The notes below the pieces were generated by a model, which saw only the letters and a list, made by a program, of their open reading frames with translations, was not told the origin of the DNA and made no database searches. A DNA stretch of 64,000 bases, from NCBI GenBank assembly GCA_964016885.1, contig OZ024765.1:23560001-23624000 (forward strand). The letters run 5' to 3'. The position numbers and the translations under genes are program-made. Shown here one piece after another: positions 24 through 23,548 of the stretch. How positions within the stretch are numbered: the first letter of the stretch is position 1; each line of letters begins with the position of its first letter. This DNA is from Eledone cirrhosa (lineage: Eukaryota).

Positions 24-171
24 AAAAAACTATGAAGAGGTGAAATCCTTGCTGTCCTCTGGAGTGGATGTAAATAGTCAGAATAAAGACGGAGTTACTC
101 CACTCCACATGGCCATCATATACAACTGTACAGATATCGCACAGTTGTTAATCAACACACCTGCTATTAAG
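24..171 (+). CDS. ANK-RING-Death gene, exon A1 (ankyrin repeat); the gene continues upstream of the window
   Basis: Acceptor tttcag ends at 23, donor gtgggt starts at 172, phase 2->0. Translates KNYEEVKSLLSSGVDVNSQNKDGVTPLHMAIIYNCTDIAQLLINTPAIK with an ankyrin GxTPLH motif. Confidence 0.85.
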
Positions 172-2019: not shown

Positions 2020-3890
2020 CAGATTAGTAAACAATAAATATGTAGATATTTTTTCTCATGATTATTTCAAAACACCTATATTTTATTTAAAATATCAAAA
2101 TACTAAGGATAAAAGAATTTAGAAATGAAAATCTGTCAATCTTGAAGCACCTCAGGGTAAACAATATTCATTGTGTAATTTTTTGTTGGCGTCCAAATGA
2201 ATAAATTGTTGTTGCTTTCAACTCTCGAGCAACCAACATAGAGTTGGCCATGGTTGAAACATGTAGTAGAGAGATCAAGTCCAACTACCTTGAGGGATTG
2301 ACCCTGAGATTTGTTAATTGAAATAACAAAAGTTAGTTTAACTGGACACTGAAGCCTTTTAAATTCAAATGGAACAGCTGTAGGTATGAGAGGAATTCTT
2401 AGAATAAAAACATTTTCTCCTTTGTGACTACCTGTTATGATTGTTACCTCTAGGACATGGGGCTTCATGGAAAGTAACAATTAAGTGAGTTTCATTACAC
2501 AGGCTAGGTAGGTAAAGATTCCTAAGCAACATAATGGGAGCACCCAGCTTTAGTGTCAAGTTATGCTGTGGCATCCCAGTGGGTTTAAGTGTGTTCAGAA
2601 ATTCAGCCTGACCTTGATTGACTGATGTGTGAGTTGATTGCAAAATCATTTCTGATGTATGTGTTAACTTTTGAAGAAGTTCATGATTGAGTTTATCAAT
2701 CATTTCATTAGTTGGAGCCAGTATAACTTTTTCACATAGCCAGTTTATATCAGTGTAATTGACAGATAAATTAGGAAATACTTTATCTATAAGATCATTA
2801 AGAGAATGTACCATTCGATCACATGTAATTTCATATAGCTGAATGTTAATAAGAAGCTCCTCTCAGAATTCACCAGCTGTATGATCATCTTGTAGATGTA
2901 CTCTCATGTTGTTTGTAAGGTGAAGTTTTTTCACATGTCTCCAAAGGTATGATTTTTTAAAGCATGCATTGACCTCATCAGCTTTTGTTCCTTTGGAGAT
3001 AACTGGCAACATTTGACAGAAATTTCCTGCAAAAAGAATTGTTACTCCTCCCATGAGCATGCTATTGTTTTTTATGTCTTGGAGGGTATGGTCAAGTACA
3101 TCTAGAACTCCACGATGTGACATGGTACACTCATCCCAAACAATGAAGCAAGTTCTTTGGAGAGCTGTTGCCAATGCTGAGCCTTTGGAAATGTTGAATG
3201 TTTGAGATTCTTTCATTACAACATTTAGAGGGAGTTTTAACATGAAATGAGTATAGACCCGTCTAAGTGCATCATCTTTCTTAATTCCAGGCCATCCTTC
3301 AACATCTCTCCCACTTTCCCTCCTCTTCCACATCTTTTTAGTTTGAATCAATGTATAAAAGTTTGGTACTTATTGGTAGAGTAATGTTGCAACAAATGAG
3401 TCTTGATTACAAAGTTTAAAGAATGCAGTATGTGTTGTTTCTGAAGGAGTTTGCAGTTACTGCATAACCTGCTGGAGATTTTCAGAACTAAAGATTACAC
3501 ACTGCCCATTTTCTAAATGTACGGCTAGATGAACTACTGTTGGATACCTTTAATGAAGCGGAAAATTGAACTTTGAATGTTTGCATAAATCCATGTTCAA
3601 CTATCTCCTTAGATGCACCAAATGATGTCATTTGAAATGCAGAATCTAATATCCATAAGATGTTGAGGAGTAGCTGGTAGTGCTGGTAAACTTACTTTAC
3701 CGCCTGAGCACACCAATTTGGACAGAATTATGATTTTTAGTCAAATGGGATGGATGATATCTTAAAGCAGCTCCAGGAGTTGTGAACAATGAATTTGTTG
3801 ATGGTCTGTTTCTGAGAGCAATTCTATTGGATCTATACAAAATATAATTTAGAGATATAGTAATATTGGTATTTTGTGTTTTGGCAAATC
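2020..3890 (-). mobile_element. Decayed Helitron (PIF1-like helicase remnant), copy 1
   Basis: Frameshifted ORFs with IVWDECTM, LFAGNFCQMLPV, LKLGAPIMLLRNL, INKSQGQSL, FNHGQLYVGCSRV, NIVYPEVL. Confidence 0.9.
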
Positions 3891-5209: not shown

Positions 5210-5553
5210 ATCAATCAAGGAGATATAATTGGGACAACACCTTTACTTGCGGCTGTATGGGGGGGGGGGGGGGGTGATGCCATGGTGAGGGTGTTGTTAC
5301 ACAGGGGAGCTGACCCGAATATTAGTGATTGTAATGATTCTACGCCTTTAATTGCGGCTGTAATTATGGGATACACAGACATTGCGGGTGTGTTGCTGTC
5401 AAGTCCAGAAATAGACATAAGTATTGTAGATGTCTATGGTAGGACAGCTTTAGAACTGGCCAAAGATAGACCACACCTAGATATAATAAAGATGTTGGAG
5501 TCTCATGTCAGCCCTGTTCCAGGTAACAGAGCTGCAGGAGAAAGAGTGGAACA
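5210..5553 (+). CDS. ANK-RING-Death gene, exon B1 (about 3 ankyrin repeats plus linker)
   Basis: Acceptor ttttcag ends at 5209, donor gtaagt at 5554, phase 0->2. INQGDIIGTTPLLAAVW...DSTPLIAAVIMG...GRTALELAKD...SHVSPVPGNRAAGERVE. Confidence 0.85.
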
Positions 5554-6225: not shown

Positions 6226-6504
6226 GAACGTGCAAGGAAATCCTGTTTCGTGTGTGAGAAACTATAGTAACTATCGTACCTACATTATAAACACTGGACA
6301 TAGTCTTCATTTCTAGCCTATATACATCTCTTAATTATATATACATGTGTAGATATTTTTATATACACACACACGTAGAATAGGAAAACAGAAAGAAAAT
6401 ATATTTTATTGATCTCCTTAACAAGTGTGTTATACTTAGACATATCTATTTGTTTACCTATTGTTGTATTGTATGGATAGACAGACAGAACATAATTGCT
6501 ATGG

Positions 6505-6680
6505 TGACATCCATAGATGAGGGGTGTGTAATAAAACTGTTCACTGTCCCAAAATAGAAGATTGCCAGGAAAATCACGTCTGTCATCTATGTACCGAACC
6601 CAAGAACTATTTCCAAAATAGATTCAATGTGGTAAATGTCATGTTTCTCTCTGTCTTCAAAGTGTCATAAACTTTCCAAA
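6505..6680 (+). mobile_element. Possible piggyBac-like transposase C-terminal Cys-rich remnant (also ~17145-17320)
   Basis: Across frameshifts it reads ...NKTVHCPKIED...CHLC...IQCGKCHVSLCLQ..NF, resembling the H-x-P...C-x2-C...C-x2-C-x-V-x-LC motif. Highly degenerate. Confidence 0.3.
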
Positions 6681-6939
6681 GATCCCAGGTCAAAAAAAGA
6701 GACACCATATTTCGATGATGGATGGACTCTAGGAAAAGGTGCAGCTACCAAATTGGTCCTTTCAGTCCCTGGCCTGTGTGTCTTCCTATACCATTGCTGT
6801 TGAACAACAACACAAACCAACTACCATGTCTTCCCCTACCATTCCTGTTGAAGAACATCAACAACAACAACAAAAATAGACCCTCAATACAGAAGTTGTG
6901 GAAGTTTGACAACTGATTTCTGCTTTAAGCCAAGAAATA

Positions 6940-7257
6940 GCAGGAAAACAGTACAGACCCCATTACTTTCAGAAACATCTTTTCATGCTCAGAGTTACTG
7001 AAGCATGGAACCAACTACCTGCATCAGTTGTTAGCTGTCAGGACACTGCATCCTTTAACACCTCCATCCTTCCTGAAATTCTCCAACACTACACCTGATA
7101 TCCTCACCTCCATACATGCACGCATGTGTGTGTGTATCATGACTCAATCACTGTTCACTTTCCTGATATTTCTACATTACTCTATGTACAATACATGCAC
7201 CTTTGATGAGTTGTAGTGCACCTGAGCATTGTACACAATAATTTTCATTATTATTAT
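6940..7257 (+). mobile_element. CR1/L2-like LINE 3' end (duplicated at ~17580-17897)
   Basis: KHLFMLRVTEAWNQLPASVVSCQDTASF matches the R-V-x3-WN-x-LP-x2-VV C-terminal motif; (ATT)n tail. Confidence 0.7.
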
Positions 7258-7665
7258 TGATTATGGATTGGCAGTATCAGTAGAGCGTCACACACCATGC
7301 TTTGCAGCATAGAGTTATGGCCCTGAACGTTCTGAGTTCAAATCCCACCTTTTATTATAAATCAGCATCATCATCATCATGAAAGGCACTGCTGATTTAA
7401 TCATGGCACCAGCACTAGGGATGTTGTCATGTCTTTGAAACCACTACAGAATCCTTTCTATCTTTTGTTTGGAAAGTTTTGTATGACAGGAAGCCCTTCC
7501 TATTAGCAACCACATTACAGAGTGTACTGGTTGTATTTTATCATGTCACCAATACTAGAGAGGTTGTTGTACCCTTCACACATAATCTCTGTAAACTTGT
7601 ATACAATGTAATATTTGGTGTAAATTAATGTTGTTGGTGAGTTGTATCTTTATTTTCTTTTACAG

Positions 7666-7808
7666 ATCTGTATGTCCCCCATGTCAGATTAATAAAGCCA
7701 CCAATACATCGACTCCATGTTCACATAACGTGGCTTGTGGAAAATGTTGTTCCACAATTGAACATTGTCCACAGTGTGGAATGAATGTATGTACGGTGGA
7801 TGAATTTA
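7666..7808 (+). CDS. ANK-RING-Death gene, exon C1 (RING-HC finger, IAP/Mind-bomb-like spacing)
   Basis: Acceptor ttttacag ends at 7665, donor gtaagt at 7809, phase 2->1. SVCPPCQINKATNTSTPCSHNVACGKCCSTIEHCPQCG fits C-x2-C-x11-C-x-H-x3-C-x2-C-x6-C-x2-C. Confidence 0.85.
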
Positions 7809-8049
7809 GTAAGTAATTATTTGATAATCTGTCTGTATATTTCCATTCATTACTTAGTGTGTTTGTCTCATGATCATAAGGTTCTGAGTTCAATTCCCAG
7901 GAGCTTATTGTATCTTTTGCACCTTAATTTTATGAGTAAGCTGTTCTGTTATTCAAACCTGTCTAAATGGTTTATAGTCATAAATCTTATATTTGAACTT
8001 TTATCCTATCTTCACCTATATTTGTGTTTTCTTGTACAAAAACAAATTT

Positions 8050-8635
8050 TTATCGTTTACTGTCCATTTTTCATGCTAGCATGGGTTAGACGGGTTGTCC
8101 CATTTGATGCAAGTAGCGTCAGGTGACCGTGTTTTACTCACATAGAACTGTTTCTGGCTAGGTTTCTACAGCTGGATGTCTCTCCTAATGCCAACCACAT
8201 TTACAATGTATGCTGGGTGCTTTTTGTTGTGGCTCTTACACAACCATTTACAGTGTGGGCTGGATATGTTTTATTCAGTGTACAGGTAGTGTGGAGAGGA
8301 GTGGGTACAGTAAGAGGTGCCTACTAGATGTATGAGTCTGTGGACATGGCAAAGTGTGTATTGTATATTACTGCTAAACACCAGTGATCTCTATCCTGTG
8401 TCATTGTCTTTGAGAGGTGCAAGTGTGCAAGGTCAGCTTTTATCACCTTATCCCAGGTCTTCCTGGGTCTTCCTATTTCATAGCTTCCATCAATTTTGAC
8501 CGTCCTGTACCTTTTTATACCTTTTTATACAACTGCTGTCCTTCATATACATCACATGACCAAACCAACACATTCTCCACTCTAGCATACTGCATCTGAT
8601 CCCTCTTATACCCAGCTTCTCTCTCAGTTACTTTA
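8050..8635 (-). mobile_element. RTE LINE 3' fragment
   Basis: Same 3' UTR as 1411-1998 (catgctagcatgggttagacgg...ctggatgtctctcctaatgccaaccac) plus a degenerate GRPRKTW-coding segment near 8450-8480. Confidence 0.75.
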
Positions 8636-8689
8636 CATTTATTGCTGTTTGTATACTTGCATTATATATATATCAATATTATGTGTACC

Positions 8690-9645
8690 AACTAACCAAG
8701 GAGGAGAGATAGGAGATTAGTTGTGAGAATTATAATTATTTATTTATAATACATTTCCTATAATATCCCTCTATCCTATTTTTTATTAGTATTAACCCTC
8801 CCTATCTAGGTCTTTTCCCCTTTTTGTGATTAATTTTATACTCTTTGACAATATCTTTATAAACCCCTTCTTTTAAAATATTTTAATTTCTATCTATATT
8901 TTATTTTTATCTTTATAATTAGTATTCCTATTGCTGAATCTCCTTTTACCTTAGCATAACTTATTAACACCTATTTTCCTTTCATCTCTTTAGTCTTTCC
9001 TTTTCTTCTTCACTCTATTTCTTCACACCTATGTATGACCCTCAACCTAGACCTCCCCTTAACTCTACACTTAAATTAATCACTTGAGGAACATTTACCT
9101 AATAATTTCACCTCTTACACTCTCGTATACATAGCCTGGACATTAAACATGATAATCTTACTTTTCTTTTCTTCTATCATTTTCTTACCCTTTATTTTAT
9201 AATATACTTTTATTTATCTTTCCTCCATTGTCTTAATATACATCACTCCCCTTAATTATTTCAATTTTAATGATTCCTCCTATATTAACCCTCTCCATTA
9301 ATTTTGCATGCTATTTCTTTTCACTCCTATATTCACTTTTTATTCTACCATTAAGTATAATACTAACACCTCTCTTCCTTTTTCTTTAAATATCTCCTTA
9401 GTATTTCAACATTCAATTCTATTAAATACTAGTTATGTTATGTTGTCAAATTATCTCCCTTCCCTCATATTTATGCCCCTTGCTATTTACACCTTCTTGT
9501 TTCCTGTTTTATATCTCCTCCATATATATATAAACAAGAAGTGTAAGTCAATAGGTTAAAATTAACTTCGTTTATACATAGTCACTGTTATATATATTTC
9601 GGATGATAACCATTATTCCACAGCTATGACCTCATCAGAACTTGA
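8690..9645 (-). mobile_element. Possible degenerate Penelope-like remnant with a decayed hammerhead core
   Basis: The purine-rich - strand has a GKC...FKCRVK...YIG fragment (GIY-YIG-like). The - strand also reads CTGATGA (9638-9632) - stem II gg..cc - GAAA (9600-9597) - ATATATAT, but stem I is poor. Confidence 0.35.
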
Positions 9646-9649
9646 ACAG

Positions 9650-9779
9650 AAAAACAAGAAAAGCATAATGATGGAACAAAGTTTACCTCCGTTATTTTGA
9701 TCTTTTGATATGCCCAGTCCCGAAGTATGATGTTGTTTTCTATGACAAAAATTGCATTATATTTTGACTCACCCTTGTA
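9650..9779. mobile_element. Mariner-like terminal inverted repeat end
   Basis: ttttgactcacccttgta reads TACAAGGGTGAGTCAAAA on the - strand, resembling mariner TIR starts, and ends at TA. Confidence 0.45.
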
Positions 9780-9818
<39 letters not shown>

Positions 9819-9973
9819 GTCGATTGCAACTGGTAAGTACAGATGTCCTGTATAAGGCAAATGTGAGTTTGAGTCACATAGGCAATGGTGTCCCCTTCTT
9901 TTAGATTATTTTTCATAGGCAAAAATCGTACATTGAAGGTTTCAATTTTAAGTTACATTTAATAAAATACACT

Positions 9974-10010
<37 letters not shown>

Positions 10011-10211
10011 ACATCCAGCTGTAGAAATCAAGCCAAAATCAGTTCCTGTATGAGCAAGACAAGGTCACTTGACCTAACATCGCCCACAGCAGGACAATCT
10101 GTCTAACCCATGCTAGTGTGGAAGAATGGACGTAAAACGGTGATGATGATGATTTCTATAGAACTACTGGATTCTATCTCATTTCAACTGCCCAGATGGT
10201 TCTATAGAAAT

Positions 10212-11148
10212 AGTAGACACTTTCCGTTAACTGGGTGACAAAATCAGCAGTGGTGGAGGGTGCTCTGAAATTGAAGTAGCCAGAGTTAAAACGGGATGGA
10301 AAAAGTTCAGAGTGCTAATACCGCTGTTGGCGGCAACAGGTTTCTTTCTAAAAGTGATAGGCAGATTGTATGATGCTTGTATACGAACAGCAATGTTACA
10401 TGGTAGTGAGACTTGGGTGTCGTGTGCTGAAGGCTTGTGTAGATTAGAAAGAAATGAAGCTTGCATGCTCCGATGGATGTGTAATAGTAATGTGAGCGAA
10501 TGGCAAAGCATAAACGAATTGAGAGAGAGACTAAGCATAAGAGGTGTCAAATGTTGTGTTCTGGAGAGGAGATTGTGTTGGTATGGTCATGTGATGCATA
10601 TGAAGGACAACAGCTGTATAAAAAAGTGCAGGGCAATGAACATTGATGGAAGCTACGGAGTGGGTAGACAAAGGAAAACCTGGGACGAGCTGATAAAAAT
10701 TGACCTTGTTCACTTAAACCTCTCTAAGACAATATCACTGGATCGAGATCTTTGGCACTATGCAGTTGTACAGAAGACCTGCTTTCTCTGGCATACAAAC
10801 TTAAACCTACAGTCAGTAGGTACCTCTTAACCCAATATACACCCCACTCCACACACCCTACTCCGTCCTCCCATAGAAATGGGAGGACCTCTGTAAAGTG
10901 GTCATATTGGTGACACGACAAAGATCTCCCAGTCCACATTGTAAAGTGGTCATGTAGGAGACACGGTAAAAAGGCTCCCAGTCCACACTATAAATGTGGT
11001 TGGTGTTAGGAAGGGCATCCAGCCATAGAAAACCTGCCAGGGACAGTTCTGTATGAGCATGACACGGTCTCCCGACTAATCTTGCCTTAAGTGAAACAAA
11101 ACCGTCCAACCCATGCTAGAGTGGAAGATGGACGTTAAATGATGATGA
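10212..11148 (+). mobile_element. 5'-truncated RTE LINE (RT C-terminal region plus 3' UTR with ~49-bp repeats and (GAT)n tail)
   Basis: ORF 10312-10830: MLHGSETW, LRWMC, RRLCWYGHV, GRQRKTWDE. The 3' UTR has repeated tgtaaagtggtc...cccagtccaca and ggaagggcatccagc. Confidence 0.9.
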
Positions 11149-11167
11149 TATATATATATCTTAACAG

Positions 11168-11258
11168 CTAAAATGGAGAAATTACATGGAGCAGCAGCTG
11201 GTTTACAGGTAAAGGAAGACAGAACTGGTAACACACCAATACATGAAGCTGTTTCACA
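11168..11258 (+). CDS. ANK-RING-Death gene, exon D (linker plus start of an ankyrin repeat); not in the ORF track
   Basis: Acceptor ttaacag ends at 11167, donor gtaagt at 11259, phase 1->2, bridging C1 to A2 in frame. (T)KMEKLHGAAAGLQVKEDRTGNTPIHEAVS(Q) continues into KNYEEVKSLLSSGVDVN to complete an ankyrin repeat. Confidence 0.75.
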
Positions 11259-11369: not shown

Positions 11370-11808
11370 AATGTATCAGGTGATGTTCCTGGTGGTGAGG
11401 CTGCTTGGCTATTCCAGCATCTCAGCCTCACCATCACCAGGTCTTACGGTCATACCAGTTGATACTCGCTGGTGAGAGAGCTTGGTTATTCCAGTATCTC
11501 AGTCTCACCATCACCTGGCTTTACTGATGTATCTCATGGTGCTCTTATGTAAAGGTGCTTGGCTATTCCAGTATCTCAGCCTCACCATCACCATGCTTTA
11601 TTGAAATATCAGTTGATACTCATAGGTGAGGGTACTTGGCTATTACAGTATCTTAGTTTCACCATCACCATGCTTTACTGATGTATCGCTTGATGCTCCT
11701 CAGTGAAGGTGCTTGGCTATTTCAGCATCTCAGCCTCACCATCACTAGGCCTTACTAATGAATCAGTTGATTCTCCTAGATGAGGGTGCTAGGCTATTCC
11801 AGTATCCT
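11370..11808. repeat. 77-bp minisatellite, ~6 copies, alternating A/B units (154-bp dimer)
   Basis: The ggctattccag..tctcagcctcaccatcacc motif recurs at 11407, 11484, 11561, 11638, 11715 and 11792. Confidence 0.9.
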
Positions 11809-12060: not shown

Positions 12061-12104
12061 ATTTCCTATATATGTGTATTTGTATTTATTTCTACTATTT
12101 TCAG

Positions 12105-12252
12105 AAAAAACTATGAAGAGGTGAAATCCTTGCTGTCCTCTGGAGTGGATGTAAATAGTCAGAATAAAGAAGGGGACACTCTACTCTACACAGCCATTGA
12201 GAACAGGTGTACAGCTATTGCACAGTTGTTAATCAACACACCTGCTATTAAG
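12105..12252 (+). CDS. ANK-RING-Death gene, exon A2 (paralogue of A1)
   Basis: Same 148-nt length and splice contexts as A1. KNYEEVKSLLSSGVDVNSQNKEGDTLLYTAIENRCTAIAQLLINTPAIK. Confidence 0.85.
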
Positions 12253-12308
12253 GTGGGTCAACATATATACTCTGTAGATTTGTCTGATTCTATTGATTAT
12301 TGTTCAAT

Positions 12309-12794: not shown

Positions 12795-14640
12795 TTACTG
12801 CTGATTAGTGAACAATAAATATGCAGATTTCTTTTCTCATAATTATTTCAAAACACCTATATTTTATTTAAAATATCAAAATATTAAGGATAAAAGAATT
12901 TAGAAATGAAAATCTGTCAATCTTGAAGCACCTCAGGGTAAACAATATTCATTGTGTAATTTTTTGTTGGCGTCCAAATGAATAAATTGTTGTTGCTTTC
13001 AACTCTCGAGCAACCAACATAGAGTTGGCCGTGGTTGAAACATGTAGTAGAGAGATCAAGTCCAACTACCTTGAGGGATTGACCCTGAGATTTGTTAATT
13101 GAAATAACAAAAGTTAGTTTGACTGGACACTGGAGCCTTTTAAATTCAAATGGAACAGCTGTAGGTATGAGAGGAATTCTTAGAATAAAAACATTTTCTC
13201 CTTTGTGACAACCTGTTATGATTGTTACCTCTAGGACATGGGGCTTCATGGTAAGTAACAATTAAGTGAGTTTCATTACACAGGCTAGGTAGGTAAAGAT
13301 TCCTAAGCAACATAATGGGAGCACCCAGCTTTAGTGTCAAGTTATGCTGTGGCATCCCAGTGGGTTTAAGTGTGTTCAGAAATTCAGCCTGATGTATATG
13401 TTAACTTTTGAAGAAGTTCATGATTGAGTTTATCAATCATTTCATTAGTTGGAGGCAGTATAACTTTTTCACATAGCCAGTTTATATCAGTGTAATTGAC
13501 AGATAAATTAGGAAATACTTTATCCATAAGATCATTACAAGAAAGTACCATTCGATCACATGTAATTTCATATAGCTGAATGTTGATATCTCATTACCAA
13601 TCTTAAGAAGCTCCTCTCAGAATTCACCAGCTGTATGATCATCTTGTAGATGTACTCTCGTGTTGCTTGTAAGATGAAGTTTTTTCACGTCTCCAAAGGT
13701 ATGATTTTTTAAAGCATGCATTGACCTCATCAGCTTTTGTTCCTTTGGAGATAACTGGCAACATTTGACAGAAATCTCCTGCAAAAAGAACTGTTACTCC
13801 TCCCATGAGCATGCTATTGTTTTTTATGTCTTGGAGGGTATGGTCAAGTACATCTAGAACTCCACGATGTGACATAGTGCACTCATCCCAAACAATGAAG
13901 CAAGTTCTTTGGAGAGCTATTGCCAATGCTGAGCCTTTGGAAATGTTGAATGTTTGAGATTCTTTCATTACAACATTTAGAGGGAGTTTTAACATGAAAT
14001 GAGTATAGACCCGTATAAGTGCATCCTCTTTCTTAATTCCAGGCCATCCTTCAACATCTCTCCCCCTTTCCCTCCTCTTCCACATCTTTTTAGTTTGAAT
14101 CAATGTATAAAAGTTTGGTACTTATTGGTAGAGTAATGTTGCAACAAATGAGTCTTGATTACAAAGTTTAAAGAAAGCAGTATGTGTTGTTTCTGAAGGA
14201 GTTTGCAGTTACTGCATAACCTGCTGGAGATTTTCAGAACTAAAGATTACACACTGCCCATTTTCTAAATGTACGGCTAGATGAACTACTGTTGGATACC
14301 TTTAATGAAGCGGAAAATTGAACTTTGAATGTTTGCATAAATCCATGTTCAACTATCTCCTTAGATGCACCAAATGATGTCATTTGAAATGCAGAATCTA
14401 ATATCCATAAGATGTTGAGGAGTAGCTGGTAGTGCTGGTAATCTTACTTTACCGGCTGAGCGCACCAATTTGGACAGAATTATGATATTTAGTCAAATGG
14501 GATGGATGATATCTTAAAGCAGCTCCAGGAGTTGTGAACAATGAATTTGTTGATGGTCTGTTTCTGAGAGCAATTCTATTGGATCTATACAAAATATAAT
14601 TTAGAGATATAGTAATATTGGTATTTTGTGTTTTGCAAAT
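12795..14640 (-). mobile_element. Decayed Helitron (PIF1-like helicase remnant), copy 2, inherited through the duplication
   Basis: Near-identical to 2020-3890 with the same motifs and small indel differences. Confidence 0.9.
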
Positions 14641-15776: not shown

Positions 15777-16330
15777 ATCAATCAACAAAATAAACTTAAT
15801 CGAGCACCTTTACATATTGCTGCATATCTCGGGAATTTAGACATATTGACAATGTTGGTAGATTGTGGAGCTGATATGAATGTTGTGGATTGTGAAGGTG
15901 ACACCCCACTACACTGGGTCTGTAGTGGTGGGGGAGAGATAGGGGCTGTGAAAATGCTATTGTCACCGTCAACAGTGGATGTGAATGTTGTGAATGATAA
16001 TGATAACACCCCACTACATCTGGCCTGTAGTGAGAGAGAGATAGAGGCTGTGAAAATGTTGTTGTCACAGTCGACAATAGATGTGAATGTTGTGAATGTT
16101 GATGGTGAAACCCCACTACATCGGGCCTGTAGAAGTGGGAAGGAAGCAATAGAGTGTGTGAAAATATTGTTAGAAATGTCGACAATAGATGTGAATGTGA
16201 AGAATAAGTGTGGTGATTCAGCTCTACAACTGGCCAACGATAGAGATCACTCTGAAATAGTGGAGTTGTTGTCACATGTCAGCCCTGTTCCTAACGAAGG
16301 TGACAGAGCTGTAGGAGAAACAGTTGAACA
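15777..16330 (+). CDS. ANK-RING-Death gene, exon B2 (about 5 ankyrin repeats plus linker)
   Basis: Acceptor ttttcag ends at 15776, donor gtaagt at 16331, phase 0->2. Motifs RAPLHIAA, GDTPLHW, DNTPLHLAC, GETPLHRAC, GDSALQLA; ends SHVSPVPNEGDRAVGETVE like B1. Confidence 0.9.
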
Positions 16331-18293
16331 GTAAGTTAACAATGATCTGGAATATCAACATTTGTTTCTTTTACTCAATAATGTTTGTTTTTTATTCAGT
16401 CATTAATGTCAAAATCCCACCATGGGTCATCGTTATGTTGTCTTTTTAATAATGTAACTTAATAAATATACTTACTGATGTAATCATCATTATTATTATT
16501 GTTAATTGTGGTGGAGCTGTTTTCACAATAAAATACACCCAGTACACTCTGTAAAATGCTGACAACTTCAAATCAATAACACAAGATCAATGTAAAGATG
16601 TATGATCTCAGCTCTCCTATCTAAACATAATTCTATCACTGCAAACTACCCTTTTACCACATTTCACATGGATTACAATATTTATTATGGCAAATATCTT
16701 CACTATTGCCTGGCTAGTAGAACTATTTTTAATGTAACATCATTTAACGAAGTAAATTGAAGGTGACCATCAAACAAGGTGTAGACATAATGAATGAAAA
16801 TAAATCCCTGTCTCGTATGAATCACTATAGGGATCACTGCATGTACATCCCAAATTCTCTAAACAACAACATATCCTACTATTTCATGTGTCAGAAACTA
16901 TAGTAACTATCGTACCTACATTATAAACTCTGGACATAGACTTCATTTCTAGCCTATATACATCTCTTAATTATATATACATGTGTAGATCTTTTTATAT
17001 ACACACACACGTAGAATGGGAAAACAGCAAGAAAATATATTTTATTGATCTCCTTAACAAGTGTGTTATACTTAGACATATCTATTTGTTTACCTATTGT
17101 TGTATTGTATGGATGGACAGACAGAACATAATTGCTATGGTGACATCCATAGATGAGGGGTGTGTAATAAAACTGTTCACTGTCCCAAAATAGAAGATTG
17201 CCAGGAAAATCACGTTTGTCATCTATGTACCAAACCCAAGAACTATTTCCAAAATAGATAGATTCAATGTGGTAAATGTCATGTTTCTCTCTGTCTTCAA
17301 TGTGCCATAAACTTTCCAAAGATCCCAGGTCAAAAAAAGAGACACCATATTTCGATGATGGATGGATTCTAGGAAAAGGTGCAGCTACCAAATTGGGCCT
17401 TTCAGTCCCTGGCCTGTGTGTCTTCCTATACCATTGCTGTTGAACAACAACACAAACCAACTACCATGTCTTCCCCTACCATTCCTGTTGAAGAACATCA
17501 ACAACAACAACAAAAATAGACCCTCAATACAGAAGTTGTGGAAGTTTGACAACTGATTTCTGCTTTAAGCCAAGAAATAGCAGGAAAACAGTACAGACCC
17601 CATGACTTTCAGAAACATCTTTTCATGCTCAGAGTTAGTGAAGCATGGAACCAACTACCTGCATCAGTTGTTAGCTGTCAGGACACTGCATCCTTTAACA
17701 CCTCCATCCTTCCTGAAATTCTCCAACACTACACCTGATATCCTCACCTCCATACATGCACGCATGTGTGTGTGTATCATGACTCAATCACTGTTCACTT
17801 TCCTGATATTTCTACATTACTCTATGTACAATACATGCACCTTTGATGAGTTGTATTGCACCTGAGCATTGTACACAATAATTTTCATTATTATTATGGA
17901 TTGACAGTATCCCAAGAGCGTCACACACCATGCTTTGCAACATAGTTATGGCCCTGAACGTTCTGAGTTCAAATCCCACCTTTTATTATAAATCAGCATC
18001 ATCATCATCATGAAAGGCACTGCTGATTTAATCATGACAACATCCCTAGTGCTGGTGCCATGTCTTTGAAACCACTACAGAATCCTCTCTATCCTTTGTT
18101 TGGAAAGTTTTGTATGACAGGAAGCCCTTCCTATTACCAACCACATTACAGAGTGTACTGGTTGTATTTTATCATGTCACCAATACTAGAGAGGTTGTTG
18201 TACCCTTCACACATAATCTCTGTAAACTTGTATACAATGTAATATTTGGTGTAAATTAATGTTGGTGAGTTGTATCTTTATTTTCTTTTACAG

Positions 18294-18436
18294 TGCTGTA
18301 TGTCACACATGTAACAGTTATGGAGCCACAATAACATTTCATCCATGTGGACATAAAGTAACATGTGAAAAATGCTGTACTTCGTTAGAAAAATGTGTCC
18401 AATGTGGAAGGATTATAATTAAAATGGATGGATTTA
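18294..18436 (+). CDS. ANK-RING-Death gene, exon C2 (second RING-HC finger)
   Basis: Acceptor ttttacag ends at 18293, donor gtaagt at 18437, 143 nt like C1. AVCHTCNSYGATITFHPCGHKVTCEKCCTSLEKCVQCG. Confidence 0.85.
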
Positions 18437-19905: not shown

Positions 19906-19977
19906 GGTCTCAAAATCTTAAAGAGAAAGTCCTGTGGAAGGTAGCAGAATTGTTACAAAGAAAATGGTTTAAAGTTG
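19906..19977 (+). CDS. ANK-RING-Death gene, exon F (N-terminal part of Death domain); not in the ORF track
   Basis: Acceptor ttttttcag ends at 19905, donor gtgagt at 19978, phase 1->1, in frame with C2. (R)SQNLKEKVLWKVAELLQRKWFKV(G). Confidence 0.75.
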
Positions 19978-21863: not shown

Positions 21864-22069
21864 GTATTCAATTAGAGGTTCCAGCTTATATACTGATAAA
21901 AATCAAGGATAACAATCCTAATGATGTTGACCAACAGGCTTTTCTAATGTTATTCAAATGGTGTGAAATTAGTGAACGAGAAGAATGCACCATAGCCACT
22001 CTGAAAGAAGCTCTAAAGACAGCAGATTGTTTTGAGGCTCTTCGTTGCCTAGATTCAGAGGAAAACTAG
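21864..22069 (+). CDS. ANK-RING-Death gene, terminal exon G (rest of Death domain, stop TAG 22067-22069); not in the ORF track
   Basis: Acceptor ttttacag ends at 21863. (G)IQLEVPAYILIKIKDNNPNDVDQQAFLMLFKWCEISEREECTIATLKEALKTADCFEALRCLDSEEN*. With exon F this matches the Death-domain pattern (W-x2-lg-x2-L...I-x2-I...eQa-x2-mL-x2-W...T-x3-L-x2-AL). Confidence 0.8.
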
Positions 22070-22584: not shown

Positions 22585-23548
22585 ATATCATCATCATAAT
22601 CATCATCATTTAACGTGTTATTTCACACTTGATATGTTAGACAAGGTGTCATGTTATGAAACATGTCAGGTCATGTGAACATGTCTTGTTCACATGGATC
22701 TGTATTTTGGTTTGGTTTCTACAGCTGGATGCCCTTCCTAATACCAACCACATTACAGTGTGGACTGGGTGAATGGTGAGGTGTAGGGAGAAGATTGGTG
22801 CAGATTAGTGTGTACTCTACATGTTTGTTTCATATCATTTTACATGGGATGTGGGGCAGGTCTTCTGAAGTACAGCATGATCCAGAGATCTCAATACTGT
22901 GTCATCTCCTTTGAGAGTTTGTGTGAGGTCAGCTTTTATCACTTCCTTCCAAGTTTTCCTAGGTCTTCCTCTTCCAGAGCTACCATCAACTTTGAGAGCC
23001 CTAAATATATTTATACAGCGGTCACCCTCCATACACACCCCATACCACTACAATCTCCTCTCCTGCACACGACATCTGATCCCTCTTATGCCTAGTTTCT
23101 CTCTCAGTTCTCTCATGCTTTGACTATGTAGTGGCTGTGTCTTTACTGTTGTTGGATGCCCTTCCTAGTACCAACCACTTTTACAGTGTGGAACTGGGTG
23201 GCACTGTTATGGGGAATGTCTGGCCAGCTGGCCTTGCTGTACCCTGCTCACAGGGGAAACGTAATTTGGGAGCTGAGAGGTCCCATTATGAGGGATATCA
23301 GGCCAATTGGCCGCACCATGCCTTGCAACTCGTGAGGTTCACTCTGGTCCTTTGTTGTATGTTGTAGTACCAGAGATCTCAGTCCTGTGTCATCTCCATT
23401 GAGAGGGTTCAGCTGAGCCAGGTTGGCCTTTTGTCATTACATCCTACTTCTGCCCAGGTCTTCCTCTTTTGAGGCACCCTACAGCCTCGAGTGCCCTGTA
23501 CCTTTTTATACAGATGTCATCCTTCATGTGCATCACATGTCCATACCA
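22585..23548 (-). mobile_element. Clustered RTE LINE 3' fragments
   Basis: ORF 22835-23038 GRGRPRKTWKEVI, a second RT tail at 23370-23548, and 3' UTR cores at 22725 and 23153. Confidence 0.8.

Follow-up and report, generated by a model that had tools for sequence, protein, structure and literature searches.

Two neighbouring copies of an ankyrin-repeat exon of Eledone cirrhosa differ at 17 of 49 bases within a sharply bounded patch and nowhere else in the exon, on a background of introns whose clean stretches differ at 1.7% of their bases. With moderate confidence we propose that the patch is a divergence peak maintained by selection, in a gene family under frequent sequence exchange in which old versions of the predicted binding face have been kept. 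The window referred to throughout is the whole stretch of DNA that was analysed (64,000 nucleotides, numbered from its first base).

A tandemly duplicated ankyrin-RING module

Self-comparison of the window revealed a tandem duplication with an offset of ~10.6-12.4 kb, in eight aligned blocks. Unit 1 comprises A1, a B1 exon of three ankyrin repeats and the RING exon C1; unit 2 comprises Z2, A2, a B2 exon of five ankyrin repeats, the RING exon C2 and, for the death domain, D with E.

24..171, plus strand: exon A1, the outer helix of one ankyrin repeat and most of the next (AG/GT ends, Pfam Ank, structural model)
90..138, plus strand: divergent patch in A1 (17/49 differences; secondary structure)
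5210..5553, plus strand: exon B1, three ankyrin repeats and a linker, shorter than and divergent from B2 (Pfam Ank, splice phases)
7666..7808, plus strand: exon C1, C3HC4-type RING (zf-C3HC4_3 E = 1.4e-4, 22 bits, below the cut-off of 27; ligands 8/8 as in C2)
11168..11258, plus strand: putative exon Z2, the start of an ankyrin repeat, in frame into A2, with an ATG at 11173 (splice sites, phase)
12105..12252, plus strand: exon A2, the second copy of exon A (Pfam Ank, Ank_4)
12171..12219, plus strand: divergent patch in A2 (comparison with A1)
15777..16330, plus strand: exon B2, five ankyrin repeats (Pfam Ank 120 bits; concave-face positions vary among the internal repeats)
18294..18436, plus strand: exon C2, C3HC4-type RING (zf-C3HC4_3 32.5 bits)
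19906..19977, plus strand: putative exon D, where the death domain begins, present in unit 2 alone (52% over 23 amino acids to Octopus proteins, E ~5e-4; in frame)
21864..22069, plus strand: exon E, remainder of the death domain with the stop codon, likewise in unit 2 alone (matches Octopus death-domain proteins at 37-52%)

The splice phases are all compatible: Z2-A2-B2-C2-D-E is open over 403 codons followed by a stop, the chain from A1 through E is open over 615, and exon B reads directly into exon C. No death-domain exons were found in unit 1 (7809-11167) before unit 2 starts. The layout is consistent either with one gene carrying a doubled ankyrin-RING module or with a pair of genes, the first of them lacking a death domain; C1 may be joined in frame to Z2 by splicing, or its reading frame may run on into the intron, where it ends after two more codons. 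Exon Z2 has no Pfam match and gives 12-residue matches to repeats of the family (best E = 0.004). Exon E has no direct match in Pfam either, and its Atlas Death cluster value of 0.88 was taken as a lead only.

From 26398 to 64000 a 44-bp satellite array, with copies ~92% identical, fills the rest of the window, and its unit resembles short repeats of dispersed elements at 10889-10994. The Z2-A2 intron holds a 77-bp tandem repeat (11394-11806, 5.4 copies). Broken reading frames on the minus strand of the shared A-B intron (~2139-3369 and 12920-14121) resemble a Helitron/PIF1 helicase fragment, and fragments at 10231-10827, with related copies at 1426-1993, 8052-8635 and 22856-23122 (67-72% alike), are what we take to be the 3' end of a LINE retroelement. 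Two palindromic elements (446-589 and 663-786, 93% and 84% self-complementary, respectively) surround microsatellite cores in a 1.6-kb stretch that is absent from unit 2.

A 49-base patch of divergence in exon A

Exon A (24-171 in A1, 12105-12252 in A2) has AG...GT ends with canonical splice sites, and both copies are ankyrin repeats by Pfam Ank (37.7 bits for A1 and 24.1 bits for A2, cut-off 21.1), with A2 also reaching 30.9 bits with Ank_4. Ungapped alignment of 1-227 with 12082-12308 gives 19 mismatches, 17 of them inside 90-138 (12171-12219) and the remaining two at intronic positions 17 and 187. The initial annotation had described a patch with 17 of 49 mismatches between identical flanks of 66 and 33 nt, and this is precisely what the alignment returns: the copies agree over the first 66 and the last 33 bases of the exon (0/99 differences). 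Its translations of A1 and A2 were likewise reproduced.

Among the 49 codons (residue 1 being the codon at 25) 12 are changed, nine non-synonymously (from A1 to A2: D22E, V24D, P26L, H28Y, M29T, I32E, Y33N, N34R and D37A) and three silently (G23, I31 and I38). Seventeen random changes would be confined to 49 or fewer of 148 bases with an exact P of 2.7e-8, 12 changed codons would fall inside 17 of 49 with P = 1.6e-6, and nine amino-acid changes inside 16 residues with P = 1.3e-4 under position weights from generic ankyrin repeats. The flanks together with the adjacent intron carry two differences in 178 bases, compatible with an intron background of 2.3% (P = 0.22), and thus the anomaly is the excess divergence of the patch, not a special conservation of its flanks. 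The C/T differences of P26L and H28Y (97-108 vs 12178-12189) fall at corresponding positions of a 5-base tandem unit, and a single slippage event may explain both.

No third copy or ortholog of exon A was found in the window or by protein searches. Seven matches to it among 18 candidate proteins included no close paralogue, the best relative being 40-51% identical; the 51% is with P0006, an unnamed protein of MIB architecture.

The patch is older than the DNA around it

The two units share two long intron blocks:

2061..3880, no strand: shared intron block A-B, the neutral reference (29 differences in ~1774 bases, 1.6%, vs unit 2)
6243..7665, no strand: shared intron block B-C (26/1381, 1.9%, without the 30-bp inversion)

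Over all pooled introns 126 of 3867 bases differ (3.3%), and over clean introns, which exclude a block-edge cluster of 12 mismatches (2007-2060), a 30-bp inversion (eight mismatches) and short blocks, 55 of 3155 (1.7%). At 35% the patch exceeds the clean introns by a ratio of 20, and the largest mismatch counts in any 49 nt of intron, 11 and 8, correspond to the block-edge cluster and the inversion. The latter is an exact, CATG-bounded 30-bp micro-inversion between the units (7402-7431 vs 18033-18062), which accounts for the eight-mismatch cluster in intron B-C. Intron divergence is uneven, with 12 differences in 150 bases after exon B (P = 2e-4).

Silent sites are affected as well. In codons that keep their residue, silent changes number 3/8 in the patch vs 0/32 in the flanks (P = 0.006; P = 3e-4 for the patch vs the 1.7% intron rate). 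This excess of silent changes and the 20-fold divergence mean that the two patch versions parted long before the surrounding DNA; the patch is old sequence, not fresh point mutation. Dating these duplicates by introns or by exons would give ages 10- to 20-fold apart. Pairwise Nei-Gojobori estimates for the patch are dN 0.40, dS 0.60 and dN/dS 0.66, dS being inflated by multi-hit codons, and dN/dS for exon C is 0.89; with both ratios below 1, they are no direct showing of positive selection. The initial annotation had offered either a conversion tract or a selected specificity determinant spared from homogenisation. The silent enrichment does require exchange or long divergence, however the two DNA copies on which exon A rests do not separate a spared from a re-imported patch; in a recombining family the two are views of one process.

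Exons B and C carry the same excess

Singling out exon A, as was done originally, is too narrow, since exons B and C likewise carry an excess of exon over intron divergence. In exon C, 46 of 143 bases differ between C1 and C2, starting at the first exon base and stopping six bases short of the donor site, with 0/34 differences at the upstream and 1/45 at the downstream intron edge. Its silent changes (4/21) exceed the 1.7% intron rate with P = 4e-4, and pooled over the divergent parts of exons A, B and C silent changes reach 8/45 (P = 1e-6 vs the same 1.7%). All eight RING zinc ligands are kept between C1 and C2 and there is no stop codon (P = 6e-5 under random change), hence both RING copies appear functional.

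The exon B copies differ in repeat number. Their first nine bases are identical, 25 of the 41 alignable end codons are changed (25 amino-acid changes), and silent changes there amount to only 1/16, a pattern that fits selection better than age. B1 contains a run of 16 G (5259-5274), in frame as assembled (five glycines), which is possibly a slippage switch or an assembly error.

The patch is centred on the predicted binding face

The AlphaFold2 model of A1 (pLDDT 90) has helices at residues 3-11, 26-32 and 36-44 and a loop at 12-25, that is, a hairpin/loop followed by a helix-turn-helix, as in the ankyrin fold. Among the top PDB matches it superposes on DARPins and consensus ankyrins with a TM score of 0.86 and an rmsd of 0.8 A, none of them reaching E <= 0.001 with this 49-residue query. 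The patch covers residues 22-38 of the model, which are the hairpin tip, the inner helix, the turn and the start of the outer helix, in agreement with the hairpin-tip and first-helix location given to it originally. The TPLH framework motif is altered by P26L and H28Y, and N34R and D37A fall in the turn and the first turn of the outer helix. M29T occupies repeat position 10, a site of high variability among relatives (0.61) that we take to lie on the concave side. Five of the nine changes are thus at concave-face sites, two in the framework and two in the helix turn.

According to published accounts the concave face of ankyrins is their binding surface (PMC8229355), and the DARPin variable positions 45, 46, 48, 56 and 57 line it (PMC10484509). 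By alignment these correspond to exon A residues 21, 22, 24, 32 and 33, of which four are changed, compared with five of the other 44 residues of the exon (Fisher P = 0.003; P = 0.023 under generic ankyrin weights). Inside the patch alone, 4/4 DARPin sites are changed, a count that falls short of significance (P = 0.053 without and 0.32 with weights). The generic control consisted of 101 units from 38 of the 120 listed exon B2 matches (78 pairs), and the motif used for cutting the units fixes framework positions, where the generic weights are near zero by construction. The exon B2 protein search had returned, among the 120 matches listed, long ankyrin proteins of 27-42% identity that were kept only as this control. 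Generic repeats are also more variable at concave sites (0.64 vs 0.55), and part of the concave enrichment is therefore ordinary relaxed constraint.

The structure mapping that the initial annotation had called for accordingly places changes at four of the five DARPin-equivalent sites, and also in the framework and the outer helix. Its description of the patch as confined to the binding surface holds for the five concave changes and fails for P26L/H28Y and N34R/D37A; in the model, the patch is centred on, rather than confined to, the predicted binding face.

A replicate within the window comes from B2, where repeats 3 and 4 differ at 5/5 DARPin-equivalent sites vs 4/24 others (P = 0.001). B2 contains an internal 102-bp tandem repeat (15873-16198; TRF 3.1 copies, 78% matches), which suggests that its ankyrin repeats, variable in hairpin and inner helix, multiplied recently.

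Relatives in Octopus are mosaic

Searched against 1.84 billion representatives, exon E matched 18 proteins with E <= 0.001 (best E = 3.8e-9, 52% identity), and 10 of the 10 matches that were looked up are Octopus proteins, most of them annotated as MIB1/2-like. A profile of exon E and six matches returned proteins with Octopus names only (40/40), the profile itself having been built from such matches. These matches point to an octopus as the source of the DNA. These relatives have a homologous death domain and share the ankyrin-RING-death order with unit 2, while unit 1 is without death exons of its own. No protein close to the window gene was found, so it may represent a separate subfamily, or come from a species without annotated proteins.

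From 75 identifiers, less two that looked unrelated, 73 family proteins were obtained; 34 had at least three ankyrin cores, and 21 remained after collapse at 95%. A tblastn search of the window with the 73 proteins hit seven regions, all exons A, B, C and E, and the degenerate ankyrin block that precedes the RING in the relatives is absent from them. Among the 21 relatives, variability is highest at the DARPin-equivalent sites (pairs differ by 0.74 on average there and by 0.55 at outer-helix sites, in a test that ignores relatedness), and the interval equivalent to the patch is no more variable than the helix that follows it (0.42 vs 0.42, P = 0.43).

A block-wise comparison covered 18 of the 21. 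In 32 of 136 pairs one block is at most 12% and another at least 40% different, distances in the RING show no correlation with those in the death domain (rho 0.02), and of the 614 quartets with strong resolution 142 conflict. This mosaicism matches what cassette exchange between paralogues would produce, and chimeric gene models could contribute to it, the relatives being gene models of a sister subfamily in which chimeric annotation of tandem arrays could mimic mosaicism. Two proteins, P0129 and P0166, have two annotated death-domain segments, in one of them with leucine-rich repeats between, a layout that may reflect either module rearrangement or chimeric gene models.

Other explanations of the divergence

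A recent duplication followed by a one-off, neutral conversion tract from a distant paralogue is unlikely. Such an import would give sharp edges, would bring silent and framework changes together and is in line with the mosaic related proteins, and a single young age would suit both long intron blocks (1.6% and 1.9%). However, neutral tracts would have no preference for exons, and an excess is found in all three shared exons with no comparable import in the long introns, the internal repeats of B2 vary at the same sites, and neither strand of the window contains a donor for the patch, the best other match being 26-27 of 49 bases.

We consider it improbable that the assembly set two alleles of one gene in tandem and that the patch is a balanced polymorphism of long standing. 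High heterozygosity can reach an intron divergence of 1.7%, and unit 1 is without death-domain exons before unit 2, but a real duplication within the gene would yield an identical arrangement, in frame, and in 6 of the 7 inter-block gaps one unit or both hold ~200-1600 bases that do not align; six such large gaps within 8 kb together with unequal exon B repeat numbers are many for alleles. Selection on the binding face would be needed even so.

Recent duplication with point mutation under strong positive selection, and no exchange, is quite improbable. The nine non-synonymous changes among 12 changed codons and the ends of exon B, with 25 amino-acid changes and a silent count of 1/16, are what it predicts; the silent changes of exons A and C, ~10- to 20-fold above the intron rate (P = 3e-4 and 4e-4), and the multi-base codon changes are not, and selection cannot raise silent divergence in this way.

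Exchange limited to exons, with a paralogue's spliced RNA or cDNA as template, or hypermutation targeted to exons, would explain why the divergence of exon C begins at exon base 1 next to identical intron edges, yet it is very improbable, since the patch of exon A is internal and the first nine bases of exon B are identical. RNA-editing-templated change was rejected, as the differences have no A-to-G bias (5 A/G, 6 C/T and 6 transversions in exon A; 11 A/G of 46 in exon C).

Clustered local mutation (through a template switch or a micro-inversion), or pseudogene decay, is scarcely credible, for although A2 loses two framework residues and scores lower than A1 (24 vs 38 bits), and a true micro-inversion is present in a nearby intron, the frames, splice sites and 8/8 RING ligands are intact. 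A scan for template switches or micro-inversions, which recovers the 30-nt intron inversion, found the longest inverted or direct match over patch mismatches to be 9 nt, compared with ~8.6 by chance.

Comparison with known systems

An island of divergence on a low background is the published prediction for selection acting under gene conversion, and the Teshima-Innan divergence peak has been described for exon 5 of the human red/green opsins and for Drosophila CG18281/CG17637 (PMC3924837, PMC2588116). As in those accounts, the introns of neighbouring duplicates are nearly identical here, and around important codons the paralogues diverge in a local peak, silent sites included. Unlike in them, all shared exons are divergent, the island of exon A is 49 bases long with abrupt edges, and a multi-copy mosaic family takes the place of a gene pair; the likeness applies to the comparison of paralogues, to which those papers add one between species. 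The divergence-peak signature is thus already known, and the octopus gene is a fresh instance of it. To a specialist the patch alone is no surprise; its value is as a pointer to the family.

The ankyrins of Podospora NLRs are described as variable within their inner helices and hairpin/loop, on the concave face (Dyrka et al. 2014, PMC4986451). Concave variable sites, variation in repeat number and suspected concerted evolution are common to that account and ours, with hairpin and inner-helix sites changed at 4/5 positions in exon A and at 5/5 between the B2 repeats. In contrast to the fungal proteins described there, no NACHT or NB-ARC was found in the exon chain, nor in 3/3 relatives scanned, the ankyrins precede the RING and death domains, exchange apparently operates between exons of paralogues, and internal repeats are less similar (78% nucleotide matches). 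Type I plant NLRs (RGC2, Pi2/9), as reviewed in PMC3492116, similarly have clustered paralogues, frequent exchange, high diversity and blurred orthology; they differ in having leucine-rich repeats and NB-ARC and in Ka>Ks, which is not seen here.

The Octopus "MIB1/MIB2-like" proteins (XP_029652081.1, XP_036355694.1) resemble the window gene in the order of ankyrin, zf-C3HC4_3 RING and death domains, in the homologous death domain and in concave variability; they differ in that the death domains are 37-52% identical and in that no exon for their ~100-residue pre-RING block was detected in the window gene. With Mind bomb MIB1/MIB2 the gene shares ankyrin repeats followed by a zf-C3HC4_3 RING, whereas no MIB_HERC2, ZZ or MIB SH3 was detected in the window and the gene adds a death domain. 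Residues 1-400 of P0006 gave no tblastn match in window positions 1-26500 at E <= 0.5, and because this N-terminal MIB region is unmatched, on present evidence the window gene is not a Mind bomb orthologue. No literature on an octopus ankyrin-RING-death expansion was found by titles and abstract openings; genome-paper supplements may list the family.

A proposed mechanism and its meaning

In the selection-maintained reading that we favour, the copies would repeatedly exchange DNA, by gene conversion or unequal crossing-over, and introns and framework codons would be evened out. Diversifying selection would keep old lineages at the concave-face codons, and linked silent and framework changes would be carried along in short stretches. 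From what is known of the domains, the ankyrin stack would bind a target by its concave face, the RING would recruit a ubiquitin-conjugating enzyme and the death domain would couple to a death-fold adaptor. The product would most plausibly be a variable cytosolic sensor-ligase in innate immunity, a role suggested by its architecture and by an evolutionary regime resembling that of the fungal NLR ankyrins and Type I plant NLRs.

More tentatively, and as a possibility on the doubtful side, octopuses may carry an undescribed repertoire of variable receptors, in which tandem ankyrin-RING-death genes form a natural DARPin library. If so, recombination between paralogues would reshuffle sensor, ligase and death cassettes while arms-race selection keeps many binding faces, and the family would be a cephalopod counterpart of the hypervariable NLRs of fungi and plants, built on a Mind-bomb-like ligase without a nucleotide-binding domain. 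To our knowledge cephalopods are without adaptive immunity. The databases label the family only "MIB2-like", and the proteins examined here are mosaic and variable at the predicted binding face; the family is a concrete candidate for intracellular recognition diversity in cephalopods, for which the patch names the exact codons.
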